A stretch of 64,000 nt of DNA from an uncultured Acidobacteriota bacterium (GCA_963761825.1 CAVXIH010000009.1:542632-606631), one strand, 5' to 3'. Positions 9,973 to 54,373 are shown, numbered from the stretch's first letter. Numbers and translations are program-made. Notes: generated by a model from the letters alone, not told the origin.

Positions 9973-9973
9973 T

Positions 9974-10004
9974 TTCAGATTCCAGATTCCAAATTCCAGA
10001 TTCG
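9974..10004. repeat. AGATTCC heptamer tandem array (intergenic)
   Basis: tttcagattccagattccaaattccagattcg lies between gltB1-B3 and hdrA. The same unit is repeated at 61131-61160. Confidence 0.5.
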
Positions 10005-10013
10005 CATCTCGAA

Positions 10014-12620: not shown

Positions 12621-12738
12621 TTCCCCAACTCCTTCTATTCATTCTTCCCTGGGAGCACCCTGGGAGCGCCGCCGTCTCGGCGGCAGAGCAGAATGCCGGC
12701 GAGGACGCCGGCGCTCCCAGGAATTCAACCCAAGCCGT

Positions 12739-15779: not shown

Positions 15780-15858
15780 TTTATGTCTCTTCAGATTAGC
15801 TTTTTGCCGCTGATTTCGCAGATTTCACCAAGCGGATTGATGAAATCTGTTTGTGTTC

Positions 15859-17763: not shown

Positions 17764-17804
17764 ATTTTTGAAATAAAAAGCGAAGTTGCGAAACATTATA
17801 GATT

Positions 17805-18494
17805 ATGCCGAGACTTCAAAGAGTTGTCATCCCTGGACGCCCGCATCACGTTACTCAGCGCGGCAATCATCGCCAAAGAGTGTTTTTTTCTGATAGGGAC
17901 TATGAAACCTACCTGACCCTTATGCGCAAGTATTTCCGGAAATATGGAGTAGATTTGGCTGGCTACTCGCTGATGCCCAATCATGTCCACCAGGCGGCTA
18001 TACCAGCTCTGGAAAACTCTCTAGCTAAAGGAGTTGGGCTGCTACATAACGATTTCTCGAGGTGGCAGCAGATCCAGCGGGATCAGACTGGGCATCTCTG
18101 GCAAAACAGGTTCTTTTCAAATCCGATGGATGATTCCTATTTTTGGATGGCGCTGCGCTATATTGAGCTCAATCCAGTGCGGGCCGGATTGGTGCGGAAC
18201 GCTTGGGATTGGCCATGGTCCAGCGCCCGCGCCCATGTTACAGGTATGGATGAAACCGGGATGCTGAACATGGAGCTATGGGGAAAGTATTTCGACAAAA
18301 TCCGATGGAAGGAATTCCTCTTGGAGGGATTGAATAAAACTGATGAGATAGATCTTATACGCGTGGCGAACAGAACAGGACGTCCCATTGGCAGTGAGGA
18401 TTTTATTCGGAGCCTGGAAAAGATGACAGGGCGGTCGCTTTTTCCGAAAAAAAGAGGGCCAAAACCCAGATTGGGCAAAAAACTATCCCAGTAA
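17805..18494 (+). mobile_element. REP-associated tyrosine transposase (RAYT; IS200/IS605 TnpA-like Y1 HUH transposase)
   Basis: PRLQRVVIPGRPHHVTQRGNHRQRVFF N-terminus, HUH motif PNHVHQAA, flanked by inverted REP units. 229 aa, intact. Confidence 0.8.
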
Positions 18495-25785: not shown

Positions 25786-25869
25786 ATGGAATACATCATC
25801 GCCGGCCTGGTATCCATCGGCCTGTTTGTTTACCTGATTTATGCGCTTCTGAAGCCGGAGCGCTTCTGA
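25786..25869 (+). CDS. kdpF: KdpF, K+-transporting ATPase small subunit
   Basis: MEYIIAGLVSIGLFVYLIYALLKPERF. GGAGA RBS. Immediately upstream of kdpA. Confidence 0.8.
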   Translation: MEYIIAGLVSIGLFVYLIYALLKPERF

Positions 25870-25879
25870 GGAACACACC

Positions 25880-27650
25880 ATGACAAGCCAGGGTATCCTC
25901 CAGATACTTTTTTATTTTGCCGTGCTTCTTGCGCTGACGATGCCTCTCGGTTCGTACATGGCGCGGGTTTATGAAGGGCGAAGGACCTTTCTGCATCCCG
26001 ATCCTCCGTCCACTGGAGCGCCTGTTGTATGCCGCTGGGCGGAGTCAAGGAGGGGGCTGAGCAGCGCTGGACTCAGTATGCAGCTTCGCTTCTGGCCTTC
26101 AGCTTGTTTGTTTTGTTTTCACCTATGCCTTGCAGCGCTTCAGGGAATCCTGCCGCTGAATCCGGCGGGTTTCGGAGCAAAGCAGGCAACGCCGGATCTT
26201 TCCTTCAATACCGCCGTCAGCTTCATGACAAATACGAACTGGCAGGCTTATGGCGGCGAAACGACCCTGAGTTATTTCGTCCAGATGGTCGCGCTGACCG
26301 TGCAAAATTTCGTTTCGGCCGCGGCCGGGATGGCCGTTGCCGATAGCGCTGATCCGGGGATTTGCCCGGCGGCAGCAGAACACGATCGGCAATTTCTGGG
26401 TCGATCTGTGCGGGGAACCGTATACATCCTGTTGCCGCTTGCATTGGTTGGCGCCCTTTTGCTCTGCTCGCAGGGCGTGGTTCAGAACTTCAGATCCTAT
26501 ACGACGGCCACCACGCTTGAGGGTGAAACGCAGACGATCGCGCAAGGTCCGGCGGCGTCCCAGATCTCGATCAAGCAATTGGGCACAAATGGCGGAGGCT
26601 TTTTCAACGCCAATTCCGCGCATCCGCTCGAAAATCCGACGCCGCTTTCCAACTTCCTCGAGAGCTCTGTTCATCCTTCTGATACCCGCCGGCCTGGTTT
26701 ACACATTCGGGAAGATGGTGAAGGACACCCGGCAGGGCTGGGCCGTATTTGCGACGATGAGCCTTCTGTTTTTGGCCGGGGTCTTCATCTGCTATCCGGC
26801 GGAGCAGTCGGGCAATCCCAATCTCGCCCGACTGGGCGTGCAGATGGAAGCAACGGCAGACGCAGCCCGGCGGCAATATGGAAGGGAAGGAAGTCCGTTT
26901 CGGCATTGCGCCGTCTGCTCTATGGGCCGTGGCGACTACCGACGCCAGCAACGGCAGCGTCAACAGCATGCACGACAGCTATACGCCGCTCGGCGGCCTG
27001 GTCCCGCTGTTCAATATACAGACCGGCGAGGTCATCTTCGGCGGCGTCGGCGCCGGCCTCTACGGGATGCTTCTGTTTGCCATCATTGCCGTATTCATCG
27101 CCGGCCTGATGGTTGGACGCACGCCGGAATATCTGGGCAAGAAGATTGAGGGCAAGGAAGTCAAAATGGCGATGCTGGCTCTGATCGCATGCGCCGCCAG
27201 CATTCTGGTCTTCACGCGCGGTCAGCTCCCAAATCAGCTTTGCCCAAGGCAGCTACTGGAATGCGCCGGGAGCCAGCCGCCGCCAATCTGAACAATAGCG
27301 GCCCGCACGGCCTCTCAGAGATTCTCTACGCCTATTCGAGCGGCACCGGCAACAATGGCAGCGCCTTCGCAGGACTGAACGCCAACACTCCCTGGTACAA
27401 CCTGACGATCGGATTGGCAATGCTCATCGGGCGTTTCCTGATCATCATTCCTATGCTGGCGGTGGCCGGAAGCCTGGCAACCAAGAAAGCCGTGCCTGCC
27501 ACAAGCGGCACCCTCCCGACACACGGACTCCTGTTCGTCGGCCTCCTGGCTGGAACTGTAATCATCGTCGGAGCGCTGACATTTTTCCCGGCACTATCGC
27601 TGACACCGATTGTGGAGCATTTTCTGATGAATGGCGGCCGGCTCTTTTAG
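25880..27650 (+). CDS. kdpA: KdpA, K+-transporting ATPase subunit A (disrupted by 3 or more frameshifts)
   Basis: [31 protein letters not shown]-terminus and [10 protein letters not shown]-terminus. Pieces 25880-, 26337-, 26878-, 27189-27650 are collinear with KdpA. Confidence 0.75.
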
Positions 27651-27677
27651 CCTGGTTGCAGTGGAGGGATTAGAACC

Positions 27678-29817
27678 ATGTCGACAATGACTGCGCACCC
27701 GAGCTTCAACACAACTGTCGTTCCAGCAAGACGATCCGCTTCGCTTCTTCCCAAGAAACTCATGCGATCGCGTCCCTTGTTCGATCGCGAAATCGTCAGC
27801 CGTGCGGTTCGTGCATCTTTTGTCAAGCTGAATCCGATTGCGCTGATGAAGAATCCGGTGATGTTTGTTGTCGAAACAGGAGCGGCGCTCACCACGTTGT
27901 TTCTGATCCGCGATATATTTGTCGGTGGAACGCGGCATCGGCTTTTCATTTCAGATCGCGCTGTGGCTTTGGTTCACTGTGCTGTTTGCCAACTTCGCCG
28001 AAGCTATGGCGGAAGCGCGCGGGAAAGCTCAGGCGGATGCGCTCCGAAAGACCCGGACGGAGGCGCTGGCAAAACGGCTGGGATCCGGAGGCAAAATCGA
28101 CCCGCGTGCCCGGTTCGGCGCTGCGCAGTCGGGGATATTGTGCTTTGCGAGCGGGCGATCTGATTCCGGGAGACGGCGAGGTGATTGAGGGCATCGCTAC
28201 GGTCGATGAATCGGTGATTACGGGTGAAAGCGCACCCGTCATTCGCGAATCAGGCGGCGACCGCAGCGCGGTGACCGGCGGCACCAAGGTGCTGTCAGAC
28301 CATATCAAGATCCGCATCACCTCCAATCCGGGCGAGACGTTTCTGGACCGGATGATTGCCCTGGTTGAGGGGGCGGAACGCCAGAAAACTCCGAATGAGA
28401 TTGCCCTGAATATCCTGATCGCCGGTCTGACTCTCATATTTCTGCTTGCGGTGGTTACGCTGCATCCCTATGCGGCATTCAGCGTTGGATCAGGCGGGTT
28501 CGGGAACCGTTCCTTCGGTGGCGGTCTTGGTTTCGTTGCTCGTTTGCCTGATTCCGACAACCATTGGCGGTCTGTTGTCTGCCATCGGCATAGCGGGCAT
28601 GGATCGGGTCATGCAGCACAACGTGCTGGCGCTGAGCGGGAAAGCGGTGGAAGCCGCAGGGGATGTCAATTCGCTGCTGCTGGATAAGACCGGCACGATC
28701 ACGCTCGGGAATCGACAGGCGGTCGAATTTCTGCCGGTCCACGGCGTGAGTCCGGAAGAATTGGCGGACGCAGCCCAATTATCAAGCCTGGCTGACGAAA
28801 CGCCGGAAGGGCCGTTCCATCGTCGTGCTGGCCAAAGAAAAGTATCGGCTGCGGGGACGGCACATTCCCGAAGGCGAGGCTGTCTTCATTCCCTTTTCGG
28901 CCTATACGCGCATGAGCGGCGTCGATTTCGCCGGAACGACGCTTCCGCAAGGGAGCCACGGATGCAATCTGCAAATATCGTGCGCGAGTGTGGCGGCCGG
29001 GTGGCAGACGAGATCCAGGAAATAAGCGATCGCATCGCGCGCAACGGCGGGACGCCTCTTGCCGTGGCCGATGGGGAACGGCTGCTTGGCATCATTCACC
29101 TGAAGGATATCGTGAAGGGCGGCATGAAGGAACGGATCGCACAACTGCGGTGCATGGGGATCCGCACGGTGATGATTACCGGAGATAATCCTCTCACCGC
29201 GGCCGCAATTGCCGGCGAGGCCGGCGTAGATGATTTCATTGCCCAGGCCACTCCCAAGGCAAAGCTCGAATACATTAAGAGGGAGCAGGTCGCCGGCCGC
29301 CTCGTCGCAATGACCGGCGATGGCACCAACGATGCCCCGGCTTTGGCTCAGGCCGACGTCGGGTTGGCAATGAATACCGGAACGATGGCAGCCAAAGAAG
29401 CCGGCAACATGGTGGATCTGGACAGCAATCCGACCAAGCTCATCGAGGTCGTGGCCATAGGAAAGCAGTTGCTGATCACCCGAGGCGCTCTGACCACCTT
29501 CTCCATCGCCAATGACGTGGCCAAATATTTCGCGATCATCCCCGCCATGTTCATGGCGACCTATCCCGCGCTCCGCGCACTGAACATCATGGGACTGCAC
29601 ACGCCCGCAAAGCGCGGTGCTCTCGGCGGTGATCTTCAACGCCCTGATCATCATCGCCCTGGTTCCGCTGGCTCTGCGCGGAGTGCGATATCGGCCTCTC
29701 GATGCCGCCAGCCTGCTGCGGCGGAATCTGCTGATCTACGGGCTCGGCGGTATCATCGCGCCCTTTCCCTGCATCTGGCTCATCGACCAAATGATTTGCG
29801 CGCTTGGCTTGGCATGA
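27678..29817 (+). CDS. kdpB: KdpB, K+-transporting P-type ATPase subunit B (disrupted by several frameshifts)
   Basis: KdpB N-terminus ([19 protein letters not shown]), phosphorylation site DKTGTIT, and [17 protein letters not shown] hinge, spread over 4 or more frames. Confidence 0.75.
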
Positions 29818-29827
29818 GGAGAGAGAA

Positions 29828-30397
29828 ATGCTCAAACAAATTATCCCGGCACTTCGAATCGCCCTGGCAATGACCATACTCACCGGACTTCTCTACTCCG
29901 GAGTCGTCACCGGGCTTTGCCAAATTCTTTTCCGTCAAAAGGCGAACGGAAGCCTGATTTCGAAGGACAATCGGGTTGTGGGGTCCAGTCTCATTGGCCA
30001 GAACTTCACCAGCCCCGGATACTTTCATTCGCGGCCGTCGGCAGCCGGCTATGATGCCTCGGCTTCAAGCGGATCGAATCTGGGACCTACGAGCAGAAAA
30101 TTGATCGATCGCGTGAAAAGGGATATTGAAAGTTTCCGCAAGGAGAATCCAGAGTATCGTGGACCGATCCCCGCGGATCTGACAACATCTTCAGGAAGCG
30201 GCCTGGATCCGCATATCAGCCCTGCTTCAGCCCATGCACAGGCCGCCAGAGTGGCGAACGCCCGAGGCGTAGCAACAGCCCAAATCGAGAAACTCATCGA
30301 GCAGTTCACTGAAGACCCATCGCTTGGATTCATCGGCGAGCCGAGGGTAAATGTTCTTGAGCTCAATCTGGCTTTGAATCGATTTGTCCCTCAATGA
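29828..30397 (+). CDS. kdpC: KdpC, K+-transporting ATPase subunit C
   Basis: [27 protein letters not shown]...[21 protein letters not shown]. Confidence 0.8.
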
Positions 30398-39412: not shown

Positions 39413-41206
39413 TTACCGTTGGTGAACCGAGAGCGCTTTTTTGCGGAGGCGGATGGATTTTGGGGTTACTTCGACCAGTTCATCGTCATTAATGATTTCG
39501 AGCGCCTGTTCGAGAGAAAGATCCCTGAACGGCACGAGCCGGATTGCCTCGTCGGCACTTGAGGCTCGCATATTGGTCTGCTTTTTCTCTTTGGTTACAT
39601 TGACATCCAGATCGACGGCCCGCGCGTTTTCCCCGATAATCATCCCTTCATAGACTTCGGTTCCCGGACGGACAAAGAGCTCTCCGCGTTCCTGAAGATT
39701 GTACAGCGCATAGCTGGTAGTCGATCCCGCTCTGTCCGCTACCATGGCCCCGGTCAACCTGTTGGTTATATCCCCTGCCCAGGCCCCCCAGCGCAAAAAC
39801 ATGGAGTTCAACAATCCCGTCCCTTTTGTGCTGGTCAAAAACTCGGAGCGAAATCCGATCAGGCCTCTCGAAGGAACTTCAAAATCCATCCGAACGCGAC
39901 CCGCGCCATGATCCACAATCCTGGTCATCTTGCCCTTGCGTCGTCCCAAGGCTTCCGTAATAACACCGATGAAATTGTCAGGGCAATCGATGATAACCTG
40001 TTCAATCGGCTCCATGAGGTTTCCGTCAATGGTGCGTGTAATGACGTGCGGCTTGGAAACCTGCATTTCGAAATCCTCGCGGCGCATCATTTCAATCAGG
40101 ATGCCCAGCTGGAGCTCTCCGCGCCCGGAAACCTTGAAGCTGTCCATCTCGTCGGTCTCCTCAATGCGAATTGCCACATTGGCGAGCGCTTCCTTTTCGA
40201 GGCGCGCTCTGAGATGCCGCGAAGTCACATATTTCCCGTCCCGCCCGGACAAGGGAGAAGTATTGGGGTGAAAAATCATCGATATGGTCGGCTCGTCGAC
40301 CTGGATGGTCGGCAGCCGGATGGGATCTTCCTCATCCGCAACGGTTTCTCCTATGTAGATGCCTTCGATGCCGGCCAGGGCGATGATTTCGCCGGCGCTT
40401 GCTTCGGGGACGGGCTGCTGCTTCAATCCTTCAAACGTAAACAGCTTGGTAATCCGTGTCTTTTCGATGGAGCCGTCCAGTTTGCATACGGATACATTTT
40501 GTCCGACTGCCACTTTGCCGGAAAAAATCCTGCCAATCGCGATTCGCCCGACATAGTCGTTGTATTCGAGCGTGGTGACCAGGACCTGAAGCTTGTCGGG
40601 AAGGATCGGCTCCGGCGCCGGAATGGTTTCCAGGATCTGCTCGAACAGGGGCCGCAGGTCTTCTGAGCCATCGTTGAGTTCCTTTTTGGCAATCCCAAAT
40701 TTGCTGACCGCATACAGGATCGGGAAATTGATGAGGTCTTCGCCCGCATCCAGATCTATAAAGAGATCGTAGATCTCATTCACGACCTCCTGAGGCCGCG
40801 CGTCGGACCGGTCGATTTTGTTGACGACGACGATCGCAGGGAGCTTCTGCTCCAGCGCTTTTCGGAGCACGAACCGGGTCTGAGGCAGCGGGCCTTCCGA
40901 AGCATCCACCAGGAGCATCACGCCGTCGACCATTTTCAGCACGCGCTCGACTTCACCTCCGAAATCGGAATGACCCGGCGTATCCACGATATTGATTTTG
41001 ACCGACTTATAGTGGATGGCGGTGTTCTTTGCCATGATGGTGATGCCGCGCTCCCGCTCGAGGTCCATGTTGTCCATAACCCGTTCCGTCAATCGTTCGT
41101 TCTCGCGAAAGGTGCCGCTCTGTCTAAGCATGGCATCCACCAGCGTCGTCTTCCCGTGGTCGACGTGCGCGATGATGGCAATATTCCGAATATCTTCTCT
41201 TTTCAT
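39413..41206 (-). CDS. typA: TypA/BipA translational GTPase
   Basis: [28 protein letters not shown], and full EF-G-like domain order. 597 aa, intact. Confidence 0.9.
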
Positions 41207-41287
41207 GAATCCTCGTCAAAATGGAGTATAAACATACGCCCAATATGCCAATACTCCAAGGATGAAGGTGTATTTGCGGATGAGCGC

Positions 41288-41450: not shown

Positions 41451-41710
41451 CTCTATGTGTCAAGATTGCATGGGAGCAGGCACTCTCCGCGCTCTATAAA
41501 CAGCTTGCCAATCGGGCCCTTTCCGTTTAAATTTAGGGTGGTATTAATAGCGGTTTTTGGGGTTAAGTTACGTAGGATGTGTGGCTTTATGAGTACGGTA
41601 GTGCCGCAAAGAAGTCGGGGTTGGTGAACAACATTGAATTTTCCGCCGCAACCAATACCCCTGCGGACTATCTCTGGAAAATCCTCCCGACCAAGAATTG
41701 GAGCAAAGGA

Positions 41711-42268
41711 ATGGACCTAAGCGGGCAGGCAACTAATAAAGATGTGTCCCTGCAATCTGAAATTTTTCGGATTAGCGGAGAAAAAATACAGAACTGTTTT
41801 CAATGCCAGAAGTGTTCGGCAGGATGTCCTTTGAATTTTGCGATGGATATCCTGCCCAACCAGATATTCCGCCATATCCAGTATGGCCATCAGGATAAGG
41901 TACTGGCCGCAAACAGCATATGGCTCTGCGCTTCCTGCCACACCTGCAGCGTCCGGTGCCCCAACAGCATTGATATCGCTAAGGTTATGGATACTTTGAG
42001 GAGCATCTCGAATAAATCCCGCGCTGTTCCCGGGGACAAAAATATCTCGTTGTTTCACAGGATCTTTTTGGGGCTTACGAAATACACCGGCCGGACCTAT
42101 GAACCCGGGATGGGAATTTATGTGATGCAGACCGGAGGTTTGGGCGGAATGATGGGATGGACGATGAAAATGTTTCTGAGAGGGAAAATCGGCATTATCC
42201 CGACATTCAAAGGCGGGAGACAATTCAGGAAGCTTTTCAGTACGCTGGGAAAGGGAGGCGCAAAATGA
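41711..42268 (+). CDS. hdrC: HdrC, heterodisulfide reductase subunit C (2x[4Fe-4S])
   Basis: CFQCQKCSAGCP and CASCHTCSVRCP. RBS GGAGCAAAGGA before ATG 41711. Confidence 0.75.
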   Translation: MDLSGQATNKDVSLQSEIFRISGEKIQNCFQCQKCSAGCPLNFAMDILPNQIFRHIQYGHQDKVLAANSIWLCASCHTCSVRCPNSIDIAKVMDTLRSISNKSRAVPGDKNISLFHRIFLGLTKYTGRTYEPGMGIYVMQTGGLGGMMGWTMKMFLRGKIGIIPTFKGGRQFRKLFSTLGKGGAK

Positions 42269-43117
42269 AGGAATTCTCCTATTTCCCCGGATGCTCTCTT
42301 CATGGCACATCCAGAGAGTTTGATGAGTCAATCAAGGGCGTCATGGATCTTCTCAATATCAGGCTCCATGAACTTGAAGACTGGACTTGCTGCGGATCCA
42401 CTTCCGCCCACTGCCTGGACGAAAATCTGGCCACCGAAATGTCTGCCCGGAATCTGGCGATCGCCGAAAAGAGCGATCGGGACTTGCTGGTTCCCTGCGC
42501 CAGCTGCTACAGCCGGTTTAAGGCAGCCGAATATGAGGTCAAGGAGCACGGGAAAAAGGTCAGTTTCCCGTACCAAGGAAAAGTGCCAATCCGGTTTGCG
42601 ATGGATTATCTGTGCGACAAACCGGTCATGGAAGAAGTGAAGAAAAAGATGGTGAAGCCGCTCGCGGGGCTTAAGGCGGTCTGTTACTACGGATGCCTTC
42701 CCGTCCGGCCACCGAAGCTTACCGGGATCAAGGACTACGAGAATCCCATGCACATGGACCGGCTTCTGAAGCAACTTGGCGTCGAGCCGATTCAGTGGTC
42801 CTACAAAACCGACTGTTGCGGCGCCAGCCTGATGGTTACGCGCATGGATCTTTTCAGGCAACTGATCGGCAAGATCCTGGTCCACGCGAAGGAAACTGGA
42901 GCAGACTGCGTTGTTGTCGGCTGCTCGATGTGCCAGATGAACCTGGACACGCGCCAGGAACTCGTGGAAGAGCGACCTCGGCAGAAAAATCGATTTACCG
43001 ATCCTGTTCTTTTCGGAACTGATGGGATTGGCGATGGGACACAAGGATGTCGGCAAATGGTTCAAGCGGCATTTCAAGGATCCCATCCCGATGTTGAGTG
43101 CGAAAGGATTGATGTAG
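42265..43117 (+). CDS. hdrB: HdrB, heterodisulfide reductase subunit B (two CCG domains), C-terminal frameshift at about 42970
   Basis: FPGCSL...WTCCGS and CYYGC...TDCCGAS...VVGCSMCQMNL. The true C-terminus RKIDLPILFFSELMGLAMGH...KGLM is in the +1 frame. Confidence 0.8.
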
Positions 43118-43124
43118 ATTAGTA

Positions 43125-43207
43125 AGAGTTCCAGTTCCCAGGAGTTCCAGGTTAAACCGGTTGAGCTAATCCTGAATTCTGACTGAACCTGAATTCTGAC
43201 TCCTGAG
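43125..43207. repeat. short tandem repeats between hdrB and hdrA
   Basis: gttccag x3-like array, then a 14-mer gaacctgaattctgact x2. Confidence 0.35.
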
Positions 43208-43222
43208 ATTGAGAGGAAATGT

Positions 43223-46200
43223 ATGACTGATAAGGTTGGGGCCGTAATGGTTGTAGGCGGAGGGATTGCCGGGATCCAGGCGTCCATTGACTTGGCGGAA
43301 TCGGGTTATTACGTCTACATGGTGGAAACTTCACCCGCCATCGGCGGAGTGATGGCTCAGCTGGATAAGACCTTCCCCACCAACGATTGCTCCATGTGCG
43401 TGATTTCTCCGAAATTGGTGGAAGCAGGCTGCAATCTGAACATCAATATATTGACGGCCACCGATGTGGAAGCGCATTTCGGGTGAGCCTGGGAATTTCA
43501 CCGTTCGCGTTCGCAAACGCGCTCGTTTCGTGGATATCGACAAATGCACCGCCTGCGGAGACTGTGCTACCGCTTGCCCAATATCCCGCCCCAATGAATT
43601 CAATGCTCTGATCAACAACCGCAAGGCCATCTACAAGAGATATCCCCAGGCGATTCCGAATGCCTTCGCCATTGAAAAACGCGGCGAAGCGCCCTGCCGC
43701 AATGCCTGCCCGATTGAGCAGCGCGCCATGGGTTATGTGGCGCTGATTCGCGAGAAGCGGTTTGCCGAAGCCTATCGGACCATTAAGGAAGACAATCCCT
43801 TCCCCTCTGTTTGCGGCCGCGTCTGTAATCATAAGTGCGAGGAGGCCTGCACCCGCGGCGAAAACGGACACGAAGCGGTCAACATCATGCACTTGAAGCG
43901 CTTTGTGACCGACTGGGCATTTGCTCATCCCGAAGAGGTCCAGAAAGCGTATGCAGCCGGCATCCAGATAAGCCCCGGACACCACCGGATTGGGCAAGAA
44001 GGTAGCCATCATCGGCGCCGGCCCGGCCGGATTGACGGCAGCAAACGATCTGATCGCCAAGAATTACGCCGTCACGGTGTTCGAAGCGCTGCCCGCAGCC
44101 GGCGGGATGATGCGCGTGGGCATTCCCGAATATCGCATGCCGTACGATCTGGTCCAGAAAGAAGTCGATGAAATAGTCTCCAAAGGCGTCGAGCTGAAGC
44201 TGAACAGCCGCGTGGACGATGCCGCCGGATTGCTGGGTGAATATCAGGCGGTATTTGTTGCGACCGGCGCTCATGTCGGCCTCAAGACCGGCATCCCCGG
44301 AAACGATCTGCCGGAGGTCCATGTTGCGACCGATTTCCTGCGGGCGGTAAGCCTCAGAGACGCGTCCGCCAACCTACCGATTGTCAAGGGCAAGCGCGTG
44401 CTGGTGCTGGGCGGCGGCAATGTCGCGGTCGATGCGGCCATGTCCTCGGTACGGCTTGGCGCGAGCTGGGTCGGGATGACCTGCCTCGAGGGCGAAGGCA
44501 AAATGCTTGCCCACGACTGGGAAGTCCGCGATTGCCGCGATGAAGGAATCGATGTGATGCCCGGCAGGAACTTCCTGGAAATCACGAACAAGGACGGCAA
44601 GGTCACCGGAGTGCGGACCGTCAATGTGAATTTCCGCGGCTTCGTCGACGGGAAGATCGACATGGACGTAGATCCCGGGAACGGAGACTGTCGTTCCCTG
44701 CGATATCGTTATTTATGCCATCAGCCAGAGGCCCGACTAACCCTTTTGAAAGACAAGGTCGAAACGGCGCGCGGCCGCAGTGGCGGTGGACAAAAACACG
44801 CTCGCGACCAACGTTCCGGGCATTTTCGCCGGCGGCGATGCGGTCACAGGCACAACGTGGGTCGTCGAAGCCATCGATGCGGGACACAAGGCAGCCCGCG
44901 CGATCGAAGCGTATCTGAAGGAAGAAACCGCCAAGGCATGGCCTCCTGCCGTAACCGTTCTCGAGAGATTGCCTGAAGCCACGATCGATCCGGAACAGAA
45001 GGAGCAGTTAATGGAAGATCTACTCGCCAGGCTTCCCGTTTTGAACCCGCGAAGCGCGACGCCGCCGAGCGCAAGCACGACTTCAATGAAGTGGAAGCCG
45101 CGCTCAGCGAAGAGGAAGTGGTCGAGGCCGCCAAGCGGTGCCTGGAATGCGGCATCTGCTCCGAATGCAACCAGTGCGTCTATGCCTGCCGCGCCGGCGC
45201 CATCAATCATGACGACCGCGATGAGGTCGTGGACCTGAAAGTGGGCGCGGTAATTCTCACGCCGGGATTCAAGACGGTGGACGGCAATATCCGGCCCGAG
45301 TTGGGCTACGGACAGTATGCCAATGTGGTGACCAGCCTGGAATTCGAACGAATCCTGAGCGCCAGCGGCCCGTTTGCCGGCGTCGTCCAGCGCCGCTCCG
45401 ACGGCAAGCATCCGAAAAAGATCGCCTTCATCCAGTGCGTGGGAAGCCGCGACACTTCGTGCGGCAATGATTATTGTTCTTCCGTCTGCTGCATGTACGC
45501 CACCAAGGAAGCCATCATCGCCAGAGAGCATGACAACAATATTCGAGCCCACGATCTTCTACATGGATATCCGGGCTTACGGCAAAAACTTCGAAACCTA
45601 CTATGAAAGGGCCAAGACCGAATCCGGCGTCCGTTACGTCAAATGCGCGGTTTCAAGAGTCCGGGAAGAGTTCAACACCAAGAACCTGCTGATCACCTAC
45701 ATCGACGAAGCCGGAAAGATCGTCGAAGAGGAATTCGAGATGGTGGTCCTCTCCGTGGGCCTCGAGCCGGCCAAGCATACGGTTGCGATGGCCAAGCGGC
45801 TCGGCGTCGAAGTGGACAAATACGGATTTGCCAGCACGAAGCCCTTTACCCCTCATTCGACATCAAAAGACGGCATCTATGTCTGCGGCGTCTATCAGGG
45901 CCCGAAGGATATTCCCGAGACTGTTGCGCAGGCCAGCGGGGCGGCGGCCGATGCCATGGCGCCTCTCGCTATTGGCGCGCGGAACGATGATCGTCAAGAG
46001 AGAATATCCGCCTGAAATGGATGTCAAAGGCGAGGAACCCCGGATCGGAGTGTTCGTCTGCAACTGCGGCATCAACATCGGCGGCGTCGTCAATGTTCCC
46101 AAGGTGAGGGAATATGCAAGAACGCTCGAAAATGTCGTCCATGTCGAAGACAACCTTTATACCTGCTCGCAGGACACCCAGGCGAAGATCAAGGATGCGA

Positions 46201-47717
46201 TCAAGGAGCACAAGCTGAACCGGGTCATCGTGGCCTCCTGTTCTCCCAGAACCCATGAACCGATGTTCCGGGAAACCGTGCGGCAGGCCGGATTGAACAA
46301 GTACCTGTTCGAGATGGCGAACATTCGCGACCAGTGCTCCTGGGTTCACATGAAGCAGAAGGGAGAAGCGACGGACAAGGCGGAGGACCTTGTCCGGATG
46401 GCGGTCGCCAACGCGCGGTTGATCCAGCCCCTCGGTGAATCCGCGTTGCCGGTGATTCACAAAGCGATCGTCATCGGAGGCGGCATCGCCGGCATGACGT
46501 CTGCTCTGAAGATCGCCGACCAGGGCTATGAGGTCTTCCTGCTCGAAAAGGAGGACAAGCTGGGAGGCAACCTGTGGAATCTCCACTACACCCTCGACGG
46601 GCAGGATGTCCAGGCTCTGCTCGAAAGCACCATCAACCGGGTCAAAAACCATCCGATGATCCACGTCCTGATGAATGCCAGCGTCGTGGATTCCAGCGGA
46701 TCCAAGGGCAACTTCACTACCGGCGTAAAAGTCGGGCCGAACGGTGACTATCAGAAAATCCAGCACGGCGTCGTCATCCTGGCGACCGGCGCTCAGGAAG
46801 CGAAGCCGACCGAATTCCTCTACGGTGAAGATCCGCGGATCGTCACGCAGCTCGAATTGGAAAGCAAGATCGTCAGCAAATCCGCCGATGTCGCGAAAGC
46901 GAAAAAGATCGTGATGATTCAGTGCGTGGGATCCAGAAATGCGGAACGGCCGAACTGCAGCCGAACCTGTTGTGCCACGGCCGTCAAGAACGCTTTGAAA
47001 CTCAAAGAACTGAATCCCGAGGCGGAAATCACGGTCCTCTACAGGGATGTGCGGACCTATGGGCTGGCGGAACCCTATTATGCCAAGGCGCGCGAAAAGG
47101 GAGTCCTGTTCGTCCGCTACGAGCCGGAAGAGAAGCCTGAAGTGAAGAAGGATGGGCAGAAGCTCACGGTTTCCTTCATGGACAAGATCATCCGGGAACG
47201 GATGGATATAACGCCGGATCTCCTGGTTCTTTCGGCGGCAACGCATGCGAGGGATAACGAGGAAATCGCTTCCGTTCTGAAGATTCCGCGCACGCTGGAA
47301 GGCTTCTTCCTGGAAGCGCACATGAAGCTGCGGCCGGTGGATTTCGCCACGGACGGCATGTATCTCGCCGGCGGCGCGCATGGGCCGAAACTGATCACCG
47401 AAACGATCTCCCAGGCAAGCGCCGCAGCAGCCCGCGCGTGCACCATCCTTTCGAAAGAAAAGATGATGGTGGGCGGGGTTGTGGCGGTCGTCGATGGGGA
47501 ACGCTGTGCAGCCTGCCTGACGTGTGTGCGAGTATGTCCCTATGAAGTGCCCGTCATCAATATCGAGGGGGCGGCTGAAATCGATCTGGCAAAATGCAAA
47601 GGCTGCGGCAGCTGCGCGGCCGAATGTCCGGCCATGGCCATCGAGTTGATGCACTTCAGGGAATCTCAACTATGGGCGAAGGCCAAGCGCTCTGACAGCT
47701 GGCGGTCAGCCGAATAG
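43223..47717 (+). CDS. hdrA: HdrA-like megafusion (HdrA N-terminus, GltD/NfnB-like NAD(P)H oxidoreductase, full second HdrA), disrupted by 6 or more frameshifts
   Basis: Seven collinear ORF pieces from 43223 to 47717. VMVVGGGIAGIQASIDLAESGYYV, CTACGDCATACP, GltD-type KKVAIIGAGPAGLTAAND...GIFAGGDAVTG, IAFIQCVGSRD...CSSVCCMYATKEA, VFVCNCGIN...CSWVHMK, IVIGGGIAGMTSAL, and C-terminal CAACLTCVRVCP...CKGCGSCAAECPA. Shifts were traced to G-run or GC-run indels at about 43475 and 45990. Confidence 0.8.
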
Positions 47718-47800
47718 AGTGTATGTGAGAATGGCTCTGAAGAGCCGTCCGATGCAAAGGCCGGACGGTCCGGCAGAGCCGTCCTCACAAGGAGTAAAGG

Positions 47801-48353
47801 ATGGAAGCGATACAACAATCGGTACAGGAAAACGTGCAACCGGCGGGCTTTGAACCGGAAATCGTGGCTTTCTGTTGCGAGTTTTGAGCGTACAGCGCTG
47901 CGGACCTGGCAGGTTCGATGAGGCTCAATTACCCGACATTCATTAAAGATCGTTAAAGTGCCCTGTACGGGAAGAGTGGATGTACTAACCATCCTCAAGG
48001 CTTTTGAATCCGGAGTGGATGGGGTATATCTCGCGGGATGCCTGGAAGGAGAATGCCATTTCCTAAAAGGCAATCTCAGGGCCAGGAAAAGAGTGAATTA
48101 TGCCAAGACGCTATTGAAGGAAGTGGGGATAGAACCGGAGCGGCTGGAAATGTACAACATGAGTTCCGCTCAGGGACAGCGATTTGCCGCTATCGCCAAT
48201 GAAATGACGGAAAAGATCCGCGCTCTGGGGCCAAGCCCCATAAAAAAGGCAAAGGAACATTCAAAGCATAAGAGCGAGTTTCCCGTTTCCCGTTCCCCAT
48301 TATCCGGGGCTTTCAACGGGAAACCGGAAACGGGAAACGGGAACACAAGGTAA
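47801..48353 (+). CDS. mvhD: MvhD family protein with in-frame TGA (candidate selenocysteine) at 47885-47887 and one +1 frameshift at about 47948
   Basis: MEAIQQSVQENVQPAGFEPEIVAFCCEF-TGA-AYSAADLAGSMRLNYPTFIK / IVKVPCTGRVD...GCLEGECHF. Aligns residue for residue with MvhD at 4956-5456, where the TGA position is Cys (FCCSYCAFSAAALAG). Confidence 0.7.
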
Positions 48354-48366
48354 TTAGGAGGACGCA

Positions 48367-49038
48367 ATGATAGTAGGGAACAGGAAGTCGCTGGAAGAAA
48401 TCCTGCAAATGATAAAGCCCTATAAGAAGATATTGCTTCTGGGTTGCAGAGAATGTATTACCGTCTGCGCGGCAGGGGGAGAGCGGGAAGTCGGCGTTTT
48501 GGCTTCGGAGTTGAAGATGTCCCGGGCAAAAGACGGCCAGGAGATCGAAATCAAGGAATTTACGCTGGAGCGCCAGTGCGATTTTGAGTACATCGACCAG
48601 ATAAAGCCTTTTGTGGACGAATACGAAGTGATCGTTTCGATGGCCTGCGGAGCGGGAATCCAGTACACGGCCGAGAGATTTCCGAAAAAAATCGTGCTTC
48701 CTGCAATCAACACTACTTTCCTCGGCGTGACGCTGGAGCAGGGAGTGTGGAGCGAGCGGTGCCAGGGATGCGGCGAGTGCATCCTGCATCTGACCGGCGG
48801 CGTATGCCCGGTTGCCCGCTGCGCCAAGAGCCTGTTCAACGGTCCTTGCGGGGGATCTTCGACCGGCAAGTGCGAAGTGAACAAGGAAACGGATTGTGCC
48901 TGGCAATTGATCGTGGACCGTTTGAAAGAGCTCGGTCAATTGGAAAAGTACGAAGAGATCATCCCGGTAAAGGATTGGACGACATCGAGAGACGGCGGAC
49001 CCCGCACAAGAGTGAGGGAAGATTTGAGATTAGGCTAA
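48367..49038 (+). CDS. metV: MetV, MTHFR C-terminal-domain zinc-ribbon protein
   Basis: Paralog of 4291-4959 with the same Cys spacing. Intact. Confidence 0.7.
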   Translation: MIVGNRKSLEEILQMIKPYKKILLLGCRECITVCAAGGEREVGVLASELKMSRAKDGQEIEIKEFTLERQCDFEYIDQIKPFVDEYEVIVSMACGAGIQYTAERFPKKIVLPAINTTFLGVTLEQGVWSERCQGCGECILHLTGGVCPVARCAKSLFNGPCGGSSTGKCEVNKETDCAWQLIVDRLKELGQLEKYEEIIPVKDWTTSRDGGPRTRVREDLRLG

Positions 49039-49137
49039 GAAGCATTTATACGATTGACGATTGACGATTGACGATTGCCGTGAGATCGTCAATCGTAAAT
49101 CGTCAATCGTCAATTTCTTAATGGAGGATTTGAGACG

Positions 49138-50057
49138 GTGAAGACGAAATCGAACATTGAGCGTCTCTTGGAAGAGGGAAAGTTTGTAGTGACATCGGAA
49201 TGCGGTCCGCCGAGAGGGGCGGATCCGGAGGTCATCCGGAAGAAAGGGGAGTTTGCTCAAGGGTGTGGTGGATGCAGTAAACGTCACCGACAATCAGACC
49301 TCCATCGTGAGGATGAGTTCCCTTTCCTCCTGCCTGATTCTCAAGGAAATGGGATTTGACCCGATCTGGCAGATGGTGTGCCGGGACCGCAACCGGATAG
49401 CGATTCAGAGCGACATCCTGGGCGCCGCAGCATTGGGGATCAACAACATCCTCTGTCTGTCGGGCGATCATCAGAGCTTTGGCGACAATCCGAAAGCAAA
49501 GAACGTCTATGACATCGACTCCATCCAATTGATCCAGACCGTCAAGACGCTGCGCGATGAAGGCAAGTTCCTCAGCGGAGAAGAAGTAAAAGGAAAGCCG
49601 AATCTGTTCATCGGCGCCGCGGAAAATCCCTTCGGCGATCCTTTTGAAATCCGCGCCATGCGGCTGGGCAAAAAGGTGAAGGCGGGCTGCGACTTCATCC
49701 AGACCCAGGGCATCTACAACCTGGAAAAGTTCGCGAAGTGGATGGAGATGGTGCGGGAACGCGGATTGCATGAAAAATGCGCGATTCTGGCCGGCGTGAT
49801 TCCGCTTGAAGTCCGCGGGGATGGCGAAACATATGAAGAAGAATGTGCCCGGCATGGATGTGCCGGATGCGCTGATTGAACGGCTGAGCGGCGTGCCCAA
49901 GGAAAAGCAGGCGGAAGAAGGGATCAAGATCTGCGTGGAGATGATCCAGCAGCTGAAGGAGATCAAGGGCGTGCGCGGCGTGCACATCATGGCGATCGAG
50001 TGGGAACAGAAGGTGGCCGAGATTGCGAAGGCCGCCGGATTGCTCCCCAGGCCATAA
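49138..50057 (+). CDS. metF: 5,10-methylenetetrahydrofolate reductase MetF (2 frameshifts)
   Basis: Pieces 49138-49359, 49253-49879 and 49806-50057. KFVVTSECGPP, CLSGDHQSFGDNP, GVRGVHIMAIEWEQ. Confidence 0.75.
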
Positions 50058-50083
50058 AACGGAGAAACAAGTCAGGAATCCAG

Positions 50084-50146
50084 AGCCACAAATTACGCGA
50101 ATTGCCAAAATGGTCAATTTCGTGTAGTTTGTGGCTGTTTTTTTAT
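50084..50146 (+). terminator. rho-independent terminator after metF
   Basis: agccacaaattacg...cgtgtagtttgtggct followed by T8. Confidence 0.55.
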
Positions 50147-50546
50147 GGCGCGAATTCTTGTTATTGATGATGACTTGCACATGAGGACCGCCTGCGCGCG
50201 CGTGCTCGCAAAGGCCGGGCATACGGTCACATGCGCCGAAACCGGCAATGAGGGACTCAAGATGCTCGGCAGCAGCGCAGCCGGGTTCGAGGTGGTTCTG
50301 CTGGACCAGCTGATGCCCGGCATGAGCGGCATGGAAACGCTGGCAGGGATCAAGGTCATGGCGCCGGACCTTCCGGTCATCATTATCACAGGTTCGGTCT
50401 CCGACGAAACCTCGGCAGAGCTCGTTGACCGGGGTGCCTGTGATTGCCTGCCCAAGCCCTTCAACCCCGAACAACTCCGCACGGCCGTCGAAAAAGCCCG
50501 AAAAGGGAGTCGTCTAGTAAAATACGCCACGGATTCCACGGATTAA
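50145..50546 (+). CDS. single-domain CheY-like response regulator receiver protein
   Basis: ILVIDDD...VLLDQLMPGMSG...LPKPF. ATG abuts the terminator T-run with no SD. Confidence 0.65.
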   Translation: MARILVIDDDLHMRTACARVLAKAGHTVTCAETGNEGLKMLGSSAAGFEVVLLDQLMPGMSGMETLAGIKVMAPDLPVIIITGSVSDETSAELVDRGACDCLPKPFNPEQLRTAVEKARKGSRLVKYATDSTD

Positions 50547-50598
50547 CACAGATTGAAAATTTCGGAGATCTGTAAAATCCGTGGAATCCGTGGCGTAT
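50521..50598 (+). terminator. perfect 24-bp inverted repeat with T-rich tail, overlapping the receiver gene stop
   Basis: aatacgccacggattccacggatt ... aatccgtggaatccgtggcgtatt, then ttgtttggg. Confidence 0.55.
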
Positions 50599-50666
50599 TT
50601 TGTTTGGGAATTCGATGACTGTGCGCGGGTTTTGTATTAGTCTTTGGTGACATTTATGGAGATTGA

Positions 50667-52440
50667 ATGGTAGCACTCATAAGACTTTTCCGTTTTCTGC
50701 AGGGATCCGTCGGCCCGCTGACCATTTCGCTGATTCTGCTGCTGGCGTCCACCGGCATCCTACTGGTGCAGCCGCGGCTCATCGAATATGCGATCGACAG
50801 CGGGATCAAGACCGGCAGCGTCACCGCAATCATCTGGGGCGCGGCCGGCATCATCCTTACCGCAATCCTGGCGGCGGCGCTCAACCTGGCTTCCGGTTAC
50901 ACGCTTGATCAAGTCCTCGCAGCTGATGGGCTACGAGATGCGCAACGCTCTGTACCGGAAGGTCATGAGCTTTTCATTCGAAAACCTGGATCGCTGGCGC
51001 ACCGGCGAGCTGATGGTGCGGCTGAACTCCGATGTCAACACGATACGCATGTTCGTGCGCATGGGCATGTTCATGATCGTCCAATCGATCATCATGATTA
51101 TCGGCACGGTCATCGCCATGTACCTCAAAGATCCCGGGCTGGCACACATCATGGCGATCTTCATGCCACTGACCCTGGTCCTGTTTTTTGCCGTCGCCAT
51201 GCTTATCCGTCCGCTGTTCATGAAAGTCCAGGACCGCGCTGGATCGAATTGAACAACACGCTCCAGGAAAATCTCGCGGGCGCCAAGATCGTGCGCGCAT
51301 TCGCCCGTCAAAAACAGGAACTGGACAAGTTCCGGATCCGAAACAAAAACGTGTATGACATCAGCCAGAACGTGGGTTACAAGCTTTCTCTCTTTTTCCC
51401 CTTGTTCTTCCTGATCGCTCAGCTGGCTACGGTGATCGTCCTGTGGTCGGGAGGATCAACGCTTGTCCACAATGCGTCTACGGGCATCTCCGGCGGCCTG
51501 ACGCTGGGCAAGCTGATTGCATTCAACAACTATGCGACGATGGCGATGTTCCCGCTTATTGATGCTGGGCATGGTGCTGAATTTCATCAGCATGGCGATG
51601 GCATCGGCCGTGCGGCTGGACGCCCTGTTCCGAGAAAAGCCCTGCATCGAGGAAAAGCCCGGCGCTCGCAGCCTGCTTCCCTGAAGGGGAAGATCGAATT
51701 CCGCGGCGTTTCTTTTCGCTATGGGCAGGGCGAGAAGGCCCTGAACAACATTGACCTGGTCATCCAGCCCGGAGAAAAAGCTGGGCATTATCGGCACGAC
51801 CGGAGCCGGCAAATCCAGCCTGGTGCACCTGATTCCGCGATTTTATGACCCGGAAGAAGGCAGTGTGCTCATCGACGATATCGACGTGCGCGATCTCTCC
51901 TTCGACACCCTGCGCACGCGCGTCGCGATGGTCCTTCAGGAGACCGTGCTCTTCAGCGGAACAATCCGCGACAATATGGCTTTTGGCGCGCCCGACGCCA
52001 GCCAGCCCGATCTGGAACGGGCCGCGGAAATCGCCTGCGCCGATGGAATTCATCAATGAAAGACCGGAGCGGCTGGGATGCCTCCGTAGGAGAGCGCGGC
52101 GCAGGGCTCTCCGGAGGACAGCGGCAGCGCGTCGCCATCGCGCGCGCCATTGCGGCAGAGCCGGACATCATAATTCTGGATGACGTGACTTCCTCCCTGG
52201 ATGCAACAACAGAACGGCGGATTGTCGAAGCGCTGTATCGTGAATTCAAGGACCGCACCGCCATCATCATCAGCCAGAAAATCAACACGATCCGCCATGC
52301 AGACCGAATCGTGGTCATGGAAGACGGCCGCATTATCGCGACGGGAACGCACGAGGAACTGCTGCAATCCGACGCAACCTACCGCACGATTTTCGAAACC
52401 CAATCCGGGTCTCGCAGCGCCCTATGGGAGGATTCCGGCA
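50667..52440 (+). CDS. ABC exporter (MsbA/MdlB-like fused permease-ATPase), subunit 1, multiple frameshifts; 3' end approximate
   Basis: TMD pieces 50667-, 50788-51252, 51253-51590. NBD with GTTGAGKSSL Walker A, LSGGQRQRVAIARA signature, and IIILDDVTSSLD Walker B, in 3 or more frames. Confidence 0.65.
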
Positions 52441-54373
52441 TGAGCGCTGGCAAAACCTCCCGCACAAACGCCCCAACGCCTCCGCCGCCGGGGCGAGCCA
52501 GGACACGGCCGCGCGGCCCGATGATGTTCGGCTCCGCACATCGAAGCGCCCAGGGATTACCGCAAGATCCCTGCAGCGCCTGATGCGCTACTTCGGCGGC
52601 AACAGAGCTCTGATGATGCGTCGACTGTTTTCATCGCCGCCGGAACCCTGCTGCAGAGCGCTGGGCCCGGCACTGATCGGCGAGGCGATCAAGAATGATC
52701 TGGAGCTGTCGCAAGAACCTCCCCGATTTCGTCTACCAGAATGGAAATCGTGCTGGCGACCGTTCTCGGCGCCTGGGTGGCCGATGCAGCATCCGGCATC
52801 ATGCTGACGCGCCTCTCCAACAAAATCGTCTACCGCCTCCGCGAAGACTCCTTTGCGCACGTCCAAACGCTCTCGATGGGATCCTTCGACAAGCGCGGGA
52901 TCGGCGATTTCATCAGCCGCATGACCAACGACATCGAAATGGTCTTCAATGCGATGAACAACGGCTTCTCCAGCCTGGTCGGCGGCCTGCTTTCCATGAT
53001 CACCGTCCTGGTCGCGATGTTTGTGCTCTCCGTTCCGCTTTCGTTCGTAGTCCTCGCCGTCGTGCCGGTGATGGCGGTTCTGACCGGAATTATCGGGAAG
53101 AAAATCCGGGGAGCTTTCCGCAAAAACCAGGAATGGGTCGGCCGGTTGACTTCCAGCATCGAAGAGTCCGTTTCGGGAGTCAAAGTCATCAAAACATTCC
53201 GCCGCGAAGAAGCGGAGTTCGCAAAATTTGAAAAAGTGAACGATGAAAGCCAGCGCGTGGGCGTGGAAGCGGAACTGATTTCCTACGCATTCATGCCGCT
53301 GATGAATATCATGACGTCGCTGACGCTTGGACTGATTGTCGGCGTGGGCGGTTACATGGCGCTCAAATCCGCTGCCGCCTCAGCCGCCGGACGGCACAGC
53401 AGCCGGCGGGAGGCGTCTCCATCGGGCTTTTGACGGCCTTCATCCTGTATTCTCAGCGCTTCTTCGAACCCGCTGCGCCAGATCACGCAGGTGTACAGCA
53501 TGATTCAATCGGCCCTGGCGGGAGCGGAACGCCTGTTCGAAATGATGGATATGAAGCAGGAGGTCGTTGAAAAACCGGACGCGCTTCCTTTGAATGACAT
53601 TCAAGGAGTCGTCGAGTTCAACGGTGTCGGCTTTGCATATGAGGAAAGCAAGACCGTCCTTGAAGACATTCAATTCCAGACCCAGCCCGGCCAGGTCGTC
53701 GCCATCGTCGGGCCCGACCGGCGCAGGCAAAACGACGATCATCAACCTGCTGAGCCGCTTTTACGATGTGCGCAGCGGCAGTATTGCAATCGACGGCATC
53801 GATATCCGCGGTATCAAGCTGGACGATCTGCGCACCCGGATGGGCGTGGTGTTGCAGGAGCCCTTCTTCTTCGCCACCACGATCCGGGAGAACCTGCTGT
53901 ATGCGCGCCCGGACGCAACGGAAGAACAGATGATATCCGCGGCGAAAACAGCGAACGCCCATTATTTCATATCACGCCTGCCGCACGGCTACGACACGAT
54001 GCTGTCCGAGCGCGGCAACAACCTGTCGCAGGGAGAGCGTCAACTGCTGGGCATCGCGCGCGCCATCCTGGCGGACCCGCGCATACTGATCCTGGACGAA
54101 GCCACCTCCAGCGTGGACAGCCTGACGGAAGCGCACATACAGGAAGGGTTGATCCGGCTGATGAAGGGCCGAACCAGCTTTATCATCGCCCATCGCCTTT
54201 CGACGATCCGCAATGCAGACCAAGTCCTGGTCCTGCACAATCACCGCATCATCGAGTCCGGCACGCACGAACAGCTCATGAGCAAACCCGGTGGCTTTTA
54301 TGCAAAGCTCTACGGCATGCAGGATCAGAAGCCGGAAATACTGGAATCCGATTTTACGGGAGAGCAGGCGTAG
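52440..54373 (+). CDS. ABC exporter subunit 2 (heterodimer partner), 5 or more frameshifts; 5' end approximate
   Basis: SLQRLMRYFGG N-terminus, TMD 52741-53433, NBD with GPTGAGKTTIINLL, LSQGERQLLGIARA and ILILDEATSSVD (53594-54373). Confidence 0.65.

Follow-up and report, generated by a model that had tools for sequence, protein, structure and literature searches.

A probable selenocysteine codon followed by a SECIS-type hairpin in the mvhD gene of an hdr-mvhD-metVF cluster, most likely from an uncultured Acidobacteriota bacterium

The [2Fe-2S] cluster of MvhD hands electrons to the bifurcating flavin adenine dinucleotide (FAD) of HdrA, and the family to which this protein belongs, PF02662 (FrhD/MvhD/VhuD), is listed as a selenoprotein family with the motif CxxU (PMC13188914). 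In the deltaproteobacterial symbionts of Olavius it is the most abundant selenoprotein family, with 12 genes, and its members contain a single selenocysteine (Sec) in bacteria and two in archaea (PMC1976440); in Desulfobacterium autotrophicum HRM2 four Sec-containing mvhD genes (mvhD1, 2, 3, 5) adjoin hdrA/hdrL (PMC2702500). The subject of the present analysis is an mvhD gene found at 47801-48271 on the plus strand of a 64-kb stretch of DNA (CAVXIH010000009.1:542632-606631), hereafter the window, by which the whole stretch is meant. Codon 29 of this gene is an in-frame TGA (47885-47887) which, with a probability of about 0.93 based on comparison with related sequences, is the Sec codon of a bacterial MvhD, the [2Fe-2S] adaptor subunit for HdrA-type bifurcating modules.

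Like the Sec-containing mvhD genes of D. autotrophicum, the gene in the window encodes a bacterial PF02662 protein, has one in-frame UGA and is located directly downstream of an HdrA/HdrL gene (PMC2702500), and in both cases mvhD paralogues with cysteine (Cys-type) accompany the Sec-type in the same genome. The differences are that D. autotrophicum is a deltaproteobacterial sulfate reducer whereas the DNA considered here most likely belongs to an uncultured Acidobacteriota bacterium, that the locus continues here into metV-metF, and that the HdrL adjoining mvhD in the window is Cys-type, in contrast to the Sec-containing hdrL1 and hdrL3 of D. autotrophicum. No essential difference is seen from the FrhD/MvhD selenoprotein family of Zhang and Gladyshev, the Pfam family, the single bacterial Sec and the clustering with hdrA being the same. 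The Methanococcus maripaludis VhuD (chain K of PDB 9sfi), a component of the super-assembly Hdr-Vhu-Fwd (PMC13518236), has the same fold and family (FVCYQX corresponding to FCCEFU) and a [2Fe-2S] adaptor role towards HdrA that the window protein would share; indeed, residue 29 aligns with the first "X" in FVCYQXGYGAADLAG of 9sfi_K (E = 2.2e-37). VhuD differs from the window protein in carrying a second non-standard residue, in the column of Cys80 (AGXKPNEC versus AGCLEGEC), and in coupling to hydrogenase or formate dehydrogenase, whereas the locus of the window's MvhD has MetVF; furthermore, the archaeal SECIS (selenocysteine insertion sequence) lies in the 3′ untranslated region whereas the hairpin described below lies just past the codon. 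In methanogen MvhD a regulatory disulfide is formed by a Cys close to the [2Fe-2S] cluster, and the equivalent residue of Geobacter BamF is Sec19, for which a selenenylsulfide intermediate has been suggested (preprint 10.64898/2026.04.10.717634). BamF, which belongs to the class II benzoyl-CoA reductase of Geobacter metallireducens, is likewise an adaptor from a bacterium and a homologue of MvhD; it carries a [2Fe-2S] cluster, has one Sec close to it and feeds an HdrA-type bifurcating FAD (same preprint), but it is more than 100 residues longer, possesses extra domains and is part of an aromatic-ring reductase.

The reading frame of mvhD is set by a Shine-Dalgarno sequence, AGGAG (47790-47794, plus strand), which can be read directly from the DNA 6 nucleotides 5′ of the ATG at 47801 and which occurs at the matching place in the DNA alignment of six related loci (L001 and L005-L009). 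From this ATG the frame reads MEAIQQSVQENVQPAGFEPEIVAFCCEF, then TGA, then AYSAADLAGSMRLNYPTFIK, so that a first-pass annotation of the window had been correct in assigning the TGA to codon 29; that annotation had also invoked MvhD/VhuD as a known selenoprotein family, in keeping with the family listing cited above and with the position of the TGA in a CxxU motif, C26-E-F-U29. Aligned with the DNA of seven relatives, the repaired open reading frame (ORF) has 156 codons with Sec at residue 29 and ends as ...KKAKEAFKA at a TAA (48269-48271). Once Cys is put in for the TGA and one frameshift is mended, the product matches PF02662 (FlpD, "methyl-viologen-reducing hydrogenase delta subunit") with E = 1.5e-49, residues 21-143 covering profile positions 1-123 of 123.

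A first line of evidence comes from the conservation of the TGA. A scan of species-representative genomes yielded 80 loci, which together with 5 metagenome contigs make 85 related loci; five of these (L001-L005, four JGI contigs and one ENA contig) are the DNA behind two database calls of 117 residues. The best loci of the scan are metagenome-assembled genomes of Acidobacteriota with 80-92% identity, one of them the complete chromosome OY761556.1 (6.9 Mb), and next in rank are Thermodesulfobacteriota, Syntrophales and Syntrophorhabdales; it is on the 11 best syntenic genome loci that the assignment of the window to Acidobacteriota is based. In the codon 29 column TGA is found in 74 of the 85 loci and TGC or TGT in 11, while TAA and TAG are found in none; in the species-representative genomes alone, TGA accounts for 69 of 80 and TGC or TGT for 11 of 80. 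All five of L001-L005 have an intact in-frame upstream ORF (MEATQQS…FCCEF) which ends in TGA at codon 29. A control for the occurrence of stops was provided by tblastn of HdrB, HdrL, MvhD, MetV, MetF, the response regulator and the ABC (ATP-binding cassette) transporter against the 85 loci: across ~3000 residues of cluster proteins the sole recurrent in-frame stop is the TGA of mvhD, present in 74 loci and always opposite Cys29, all remaining ones being limited to one or two loci, mostly one error-rich contig or gene ends.

The TGA/Cys correspondence, proposed at first on the strength of the window's own two loci as the signature of a selenoprotein, is hence borne out by TGA in 69 species-level genomes and 5 metagenome contigs and by Cys codons in 11. 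Could the true codon nevertheless be TGC or TGT, its A being a substitution error of sequencing or assembly? The window is visibly error-rich, with frame switches in hdrB, hdrL, mvhD, metF and an ABC gene, but these errors are indels and not substitutions, the TGA recurs in 74 assemblies made independently in many studies and on many platforms, and the RNA constraint downstream of it, described below, is specific to the TGA-bearing genes. Because the TGA is conserved across related loci a substitution error at this site is excluded, and the probability left to this explanation is practically negligible. The further check that had been proposed, a search for TGA/Cys pairs in other redox genes, was carried out by homology in both hdrL copies, metV, metF, hdrB and a third FlpD-like gene, and no such pair was found in any of them. 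A mechanical scan for TGA codons between open frames had been of no use, 262 candidates turning up in this GC-rich window, and the homology-based checks took its place.

Protein searches divide the relatives of MvhD into two classes. The first consists of full-length homologues of ~141-150 residues, 70-77% identical, with Cys in the residue-29 column; the second comprises the closest matches (85-92% identity), all of which are exactly 117 residues long and begin at Met40, eleven codons past the TGA. Approximately 55 of the best 120 database clusters are such Met40-start calls (P0010, P0012, P0018, P0032 and others; loci L001-L061), so that in the Sec-type orthologues the N-terminal part of 28 codons and the Sec codon are left out of public annotation; calls of this kind are the usual sign of a selenoprotein shortened by gene callers, which is what they appear to be here. 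Taken literally, these dozens of entries with exactly 117 residues would mean that the TGA is a genuine stop and that a 28-residue peptide is followed by a separate MvhD starting at Met40. Yet the Pfam domain begins at residue 21, upstream of the TGA, and the shortened protein would lose the conserved cysteines of the CCxxC/U motif; the ten in-frame codons between TGA and Met40 are invariant at the protein level (AYSAADLAGS) and common to the full-length Cys-type homologues; the stop codon is TGA in every case, TAA and TAG being absent; and the ribosome binding site precedes the ATG at 47801, not Met40. Translation in two pieces is accordingly given very little credence.

The second line of evidence concerns the RNA downstream of the codon, in which positions are numbered with the T of TGA as +1. 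Here RNAalifold and the constraint on synonymous sites delineate a SECIS-type hairpin on the plus strand (47901-47917), its stem formed by CGGACC (47901-47906) and GGUUCG (47912-47917) and its loop by UGGCA (47907-47911), of which U23 and A27 can pair to leave a GGC triloop. This hairpin had been pointed out by the first-pass annotation as a possible bacterial SECIS "about 10 nt" downstream of the TGA; it is present as described, at a distance of 13 nucleotides past the codon.

If the peptide that follows residue 29 is the same, what distinguishes a Sec-type from a Cys-type gene? The peptide past the Sec/Cys position (AYSAADLAGSM) is alike in the two, and because both encode it they constitute a natural mutual control. 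In 71 distinct Sec-type sequences the third-position entropy at +18, +21, +24, +27, +30 and +33 is 0, 0, 0, 0.31, 0 and 0.36 bit, respectively, while flanking third positions span 0.52 to 1.88 bit, each hairpin site lying below each flanking site; the mean is 0.11 bit in the six hairpin sites compared to 1.31 bit in 26 flanking sites (Mann-Whitney p = 9e-5) and pairwise identity is 96% within the hairpin sites compared to 46% outside. On the other hand, in 11 Cys-type sequences encoding the same peptide the corresponding sites have 1.44 bit and the flanks 1.34 bit, without difference between them (p = 0.81). The frozen block, GCGGACCUGGCAGGUUCG (18 nucleotides, +16 to +33), begins 12 nucleotides past the TGA and coincides with the hairpin plus one 5′ base, and the comparison shows that it is under selection beyond what protein coding explains. 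This block is identical in genomes of Acidobacteriota, Thermodesulfobacteriota, Syntrophaceae, Syntrophorhabdales and Desulfobacteraceae (loci L006-L085), in which the flanking synonymous sites are saturated, an identity across phyla that suggests either a unique solution to a joint protein and RNA constraint or a transfer of the cluster between phyla.

The hairpin is also the consensus that RNAalifold returns for the 71 Sec-type sequences. The pairs from 18-32 to 22-28 are kept in 71/71 sequences and C17-G33 in 67/71, the U23-A27 pair changes compatibly to U-G in 4/71, and the loop residues G24 and G25 are invariant in all 71. Its energy is -6.9 kcal/mol for the bare 17 nucleotides, -8.2 in a context of 25 nucleotides and -13.8 over +1 to +45 with the hairpin enforced. 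The same pairing has an energy of -5.9 kcal/mol on average when imposed on the Sec-type sequences, as against -1.2 to +7.9 kcal/mol on those of Cys-type, and only -1.2 kcal/mol on the Cys-type paralogue encoded by the minus strand of the window.

According to the bacterial SECIS (bSECIS) model, the element is placed downstream of the UGA and has a loop of 3-9 nucleotides on an upper stem of 4-16 base pairs, with a G within the first two loop positions and the pattern N1-G-[G|U]-N-N2, in which N1 and N2 are able to pair, a UGA-to-loop spacing of 16-37 nucleotides and a minimum free energy (MFE) of -7.5 kcal/mol or lower (PMC13188914). The hairpin of the window has a 5-nucleotide (UGGCA) or 3-nucleotide (GGC) loop on a stem of 6-7 base pairs, the loop U-G-G-C-A fits the pattern exactly, the spacing is 19 nucleotides to U23 or 20 to G24, and the energy reaches -8.2 kcal/mol in the 25-nucleotide context; it is in line with all four published criteria, the energy being marginal. 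This agreement, together with synonymous sites that are frozen in the Sec-type and free in the Cys-type genes, upholds the proposal that the hairpin is a bacterial SECIS.

A number of observations weigh against the assignment of a Sec codon with its SECIS. The bare 17-nucleotide hairpin, at -6.9 kcal/mol, falls a little short of the -7.5 threshold, and the folding energy of single sequences is no better than that of dinucleotide shuffles (z = -0.2 to -0.35); the invariance of the hairpin leaves it without two-sided compensatory covariation, its bottom pair C17-G33 is broken in 4/71 sequences, and no Rfam SECIS family was matched by the whole window at gathering thresholds nor by 47780-48000 at E <= 10, the single Rfam match at this level being mir-427 (E = 2.2), which is noise. 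The parallels with described proteins depend in part on two assignments: the "X" of 9sfi_K is presumably selenocysteine, as the literature on the two Sec residues of archaeal VhuD implies, and Sec19 of BamF would occupy the column of U29, judging from its place near the N-terminus and from bacteria having only one Sec site. Neither selA, selB, selD nor a gene for tRNA-Sec is present in the 64 kb, which at ~1% of such a genome is uninformative in this respect, nor in the flanking DNA retrieved for relatives, and ARAGORN found no tRNA in the window or in the flanks of 60 related loci. Finally, the window's copy of mvhD bears two frame-disrupting indels and, at face value, would be a pseudogene.

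As to folding, the best MFE structure of single sequences shifts with the length folded, and energy alone was set aside as evidence; the folding check that had been recommended for the region past the TGA has accordingly a divided outcome, the single-sequence energy being unremarkable compared to shuffles and the 71-sequence consensus returning the very hairpin that had been named. Two other helices suggested by MFE were discarded: in the one at +3-7/+11-15 two of five pairs are kept in as few as 22-29 of the 71 sequences, and in the long-range one at +1-5/+39-43 three of five pairs are broken in 12-20 of them.

As to the indels, alignment with the seven relatives identifies an extra base at 47948 (AAA[G]ATCGTT where relatives have AAA-(G/A)TCAT), past which the homologous sequence carries on in the +1 frame (…IVKVPCTGRVD…), and a missing base at 48257-48258 (GGA-ACATTC where relatives have GGACGCATTC), by which the original frame is restored. 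These two lesions and the TGA, combined with the intact minus-strand locus of the Cys-type paralogue, could be taken to mean that the plus-locus mvhD is inactive and that its paralogue does the work. Against a pseudogene speak the facts that the TGA is ancestral and conserved and is no lesion, that similar frame switches occur in essentially every long gene nearby, kdpA and metF included, and that, indels aside, mvhD retains 86-92% amino-acid identity to its Acidobacteriota orthologues as well as an intact SECIS block. Because the neighboring hdrB, hdrL, metF and ABC genes also switch frame, both indels of mvhD are best read as assembly errors rather than as pseudogenization, for which the probability appears slight; the earlier statement that the errors of this sequence are indels rather than substitutions agrees with the extra base near 47948, the missing base near 48257 and the frame switches of those four neighbors. 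Compared to the uninterrupted genes of L001, the frame switches within 41500-52500 concern hdrB, hdrL (at least 5), mvhD (2), metF (2) and the ABC gene (at least 2). Elsewhere in the window kdpA is divided between two ORFs and kdpB, too, appears to be divided (25853-29870), and the nearest relative, L005 (ENA ERZ25039461; 90.6% nucleotide identity), is similarly error-rich.

Is the TGA recoded locally, or is TGA a sense codon throughout this genome? Of the 27 Pfam-supported ORFs in the window 9 end in TGA, as do two genes of L001, the hdrC-like gene and that for the response regulator; a genome-wide change of the code was rejected, and the recoding is to be regarded as local because TGA is the ordinary stop of those 9 window genes. 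Pfam detected no SelA, SelB or SelD domain in ~60 ORFs of the window, its only EF-Tu-like GTPase (39416-41215) being TypA/BipA; Acidobacteria were listed among the selenoprotein-bearing phyla in 2006 (PMC1794560). Since DNA does not distinguish insertion of Sec from insertion of Cys at a SECIS-dependent UGA, the codon might also be read at least partly as Cys by a tRNA-Sec-like tRNA-Cys(UCA), selC*, served by a SelB* of its own. SelB copies and tRNAs of this kind have been described in lineages that hold the nearest non-acidobacterial orthologues (Syntrophobacterales, Desulfobacterales), but the phyla from which selC* has been reported are Firmicutes, Thermodesulfobacteria, Nitrospirae and Proteobacteria, not Acidobacteria (PMC5389517), and MvhD is an established selenoprotein family. 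This variant, which has a low probability, is compatible with a Sec codon, Cys insertion being expected to complement the decoding as Sec rather than to replace it.

The genomic surroundings of mvhD bear on its function. In acetogens of the Moorella type, MetFV, HdrABC and MvhD make up a methylene-tetrahydrofolate reductase complex (cf. PMC9430772), and the same set of genes (hdrC, hdrB, hdrA, mvhD, metV and metF) is present in the window, with the difference that HdrA forms here a fusion of 1491 residues, HdrL, with a GltD-like module for NAD(P)H and that MvhD would be a selenoprotein. All on the plus strand, an hdrC-like gene (41576-42265; Pfam Fer4_17/Fer4_8) is followed by hdrB (42157-43122; CCG domains), by the giant HdrA/GltD fusion HdrL (~43265-47717; HdrA-like FAD and Fer4 domains in Pfam, and tblastn), which in relatives is uninterrupted with 1491 residues, by mvhD, by metV (48367-49038; PF12225, DUF5981) and by metF (~49126-50057; PF02219, MTHFR, two frame switches), the last two identified by Pfam and tblastn. 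A response regulator and ABC transporters come next, and the order is identical in the relatives (L001-L005); in these as in the window mvhD is directly downstream of the giant HdrA/HdrL gene, and tblastn revealed no in-frame TGA in the neighboring HdrL, which is of the Cys-type. The cluster resembles the MetFV-HdrABC-MvhD methylene-tetrahydrofolate reductase clusters of Wood-Ljungdahl organisms, and it is from this resemblance that its function is deduced.

On the premise that the TGA is a Sec codon, SelB carrying Sec-tRNA(Sec) would bind the hairpin, whose loop UGGCA has its G residues ~20 nucleotides from the UGA, and Sec would be inserted instead of termination taking place. The product would be a 156-residue MvhD whose Sec lies at the [2Fe-2S] site or beside it, where it may take part in a selenol/thiol redox chemistry passing electrons to the bifurcating FAD of the neighboring HdrL (the HdrA-GltD fusion); with HdrBC and MetVF, MvhD-HdrL would form a methylene-tetrahydrofolate reductase complex in the Wood-Ljungdahl pathway's methyl branch. 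It is implied that UGA is read as selenocysteine in this Acidobacteriota lineage and that one electron-input subunit of an Hdr-linked methylene-tetrahydrofolate reductase would depend on selenium, with the Cys-type locus as a possible backup.

A broader interpretation would be that uncultured Acidobacteriota run a selenium-dependent HdrL-MvhD-MetVF reductase, that the Sec-MvhD and its SECIS have been exchanged between phyla, the SECIS being frozen because it must encode the invariant AADLAGS and bind SelB at once, and that annotations miss the selenoprotein; for all these parts jointly the chances are somewhat below even. If this tentative picture were true, current estimates for soil and sediment Acidobacteriota would be too low, both of their selenoproteomes and of the degree to which the Wood-Ljungdahl methyl branch depends on selenium. 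Independently of it, the reading of the TGA as Sec means that mvhD should be annotated as a 156-residue selenoprotein (47801-48271, U29) and not as a stop-interrupted or 117-residue protein, the same correction being due in no fewer than 69 species-representative genomes and for database clusters by the dozen, and the comparison of Sec-type and Cys-type genes for the same peptide offers a clean case of a conserved protein motif on which an RNA signal is superimposed. Sec insertion and MvhD selenoproteins at CxxU were already known, and knowledge of neither is changed here; what may be considered new, in a modest measure, is the probable Acidobacteriota lineage, the HdrL-MetVF linkage, the invariance of the SECIS across phyla and the systematic shortening in public gene calls. 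A search of the literature for a description of a Sec-MvhD/MetF in Acidobacteria found nothing specific.

The Cys-type paralogue of mvhD (4956-5456, minus strand; Pfam and alignment) belongs to a second hdrL-mvhD-metV locus and reads FCCSYCAFSAAALAG, with TGT (5349-5351) opposite the Sec codon. The two proteins align without gaps over 133 residues with 50% identity, Cys36 of the paralogue facing the TGA, so that the alignment on both sides of this position holds as originally stated. The second locus (4291-10137, minus strand), in which no in-frame TGA was found, encodes proteins 42-51% identical to the plus-locus proteins of L001; by analogy with Vhu/Vhc, it could serve under selenium scarcity. 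There is no metF after its metV, and the adjoining plus-strand genes encode the two E1 subunits, alpha and beta, of a 2-oxoacid dehydrogenase. A further run of minus-strand genes (10014-17332) lies directly upstream of the hdrL on that strand and is headed by the third FlpD/MvhD-like gene (16745-17332; E = 2.4e-23), whose CxxC motif appears as VFVCANCA; the four genes behind it are an MTHFR-like gene (15794-16735), two genes with glutamate-synthase domains (12739-15824) and a GXGXG/GATase gene (10014-12620).

The spacer between mvhD and metV (48272-48350) contains a long near-perfect hairpin of tandem heptamers (GTTTCCC GTTTCCC GTTCCCC … GGGAAAC CGGAAAC GGGAAAC GGGAAC) with an energy of -35 kcal/mol for 79 nucleotides. 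It is weak or absent in L010, L017 and L025; hairpins of -34 to -56 kcal/mol occur at the same spot in the Acidobacteriota relatives L001, L005-L009 and L011, their sequences differing and staying self-complementary, and the structure may be an intercistronic stabilizer, a terminator or an element of the REP (repetitive extragenic palindromic) type. Between the minus-strand redox cluster and a gene for a sigma-54 activator, an ORF for an IS200-like Y1 transposase is found on the plus strand (17802-18491; PF01797, E = 2.9e-11).

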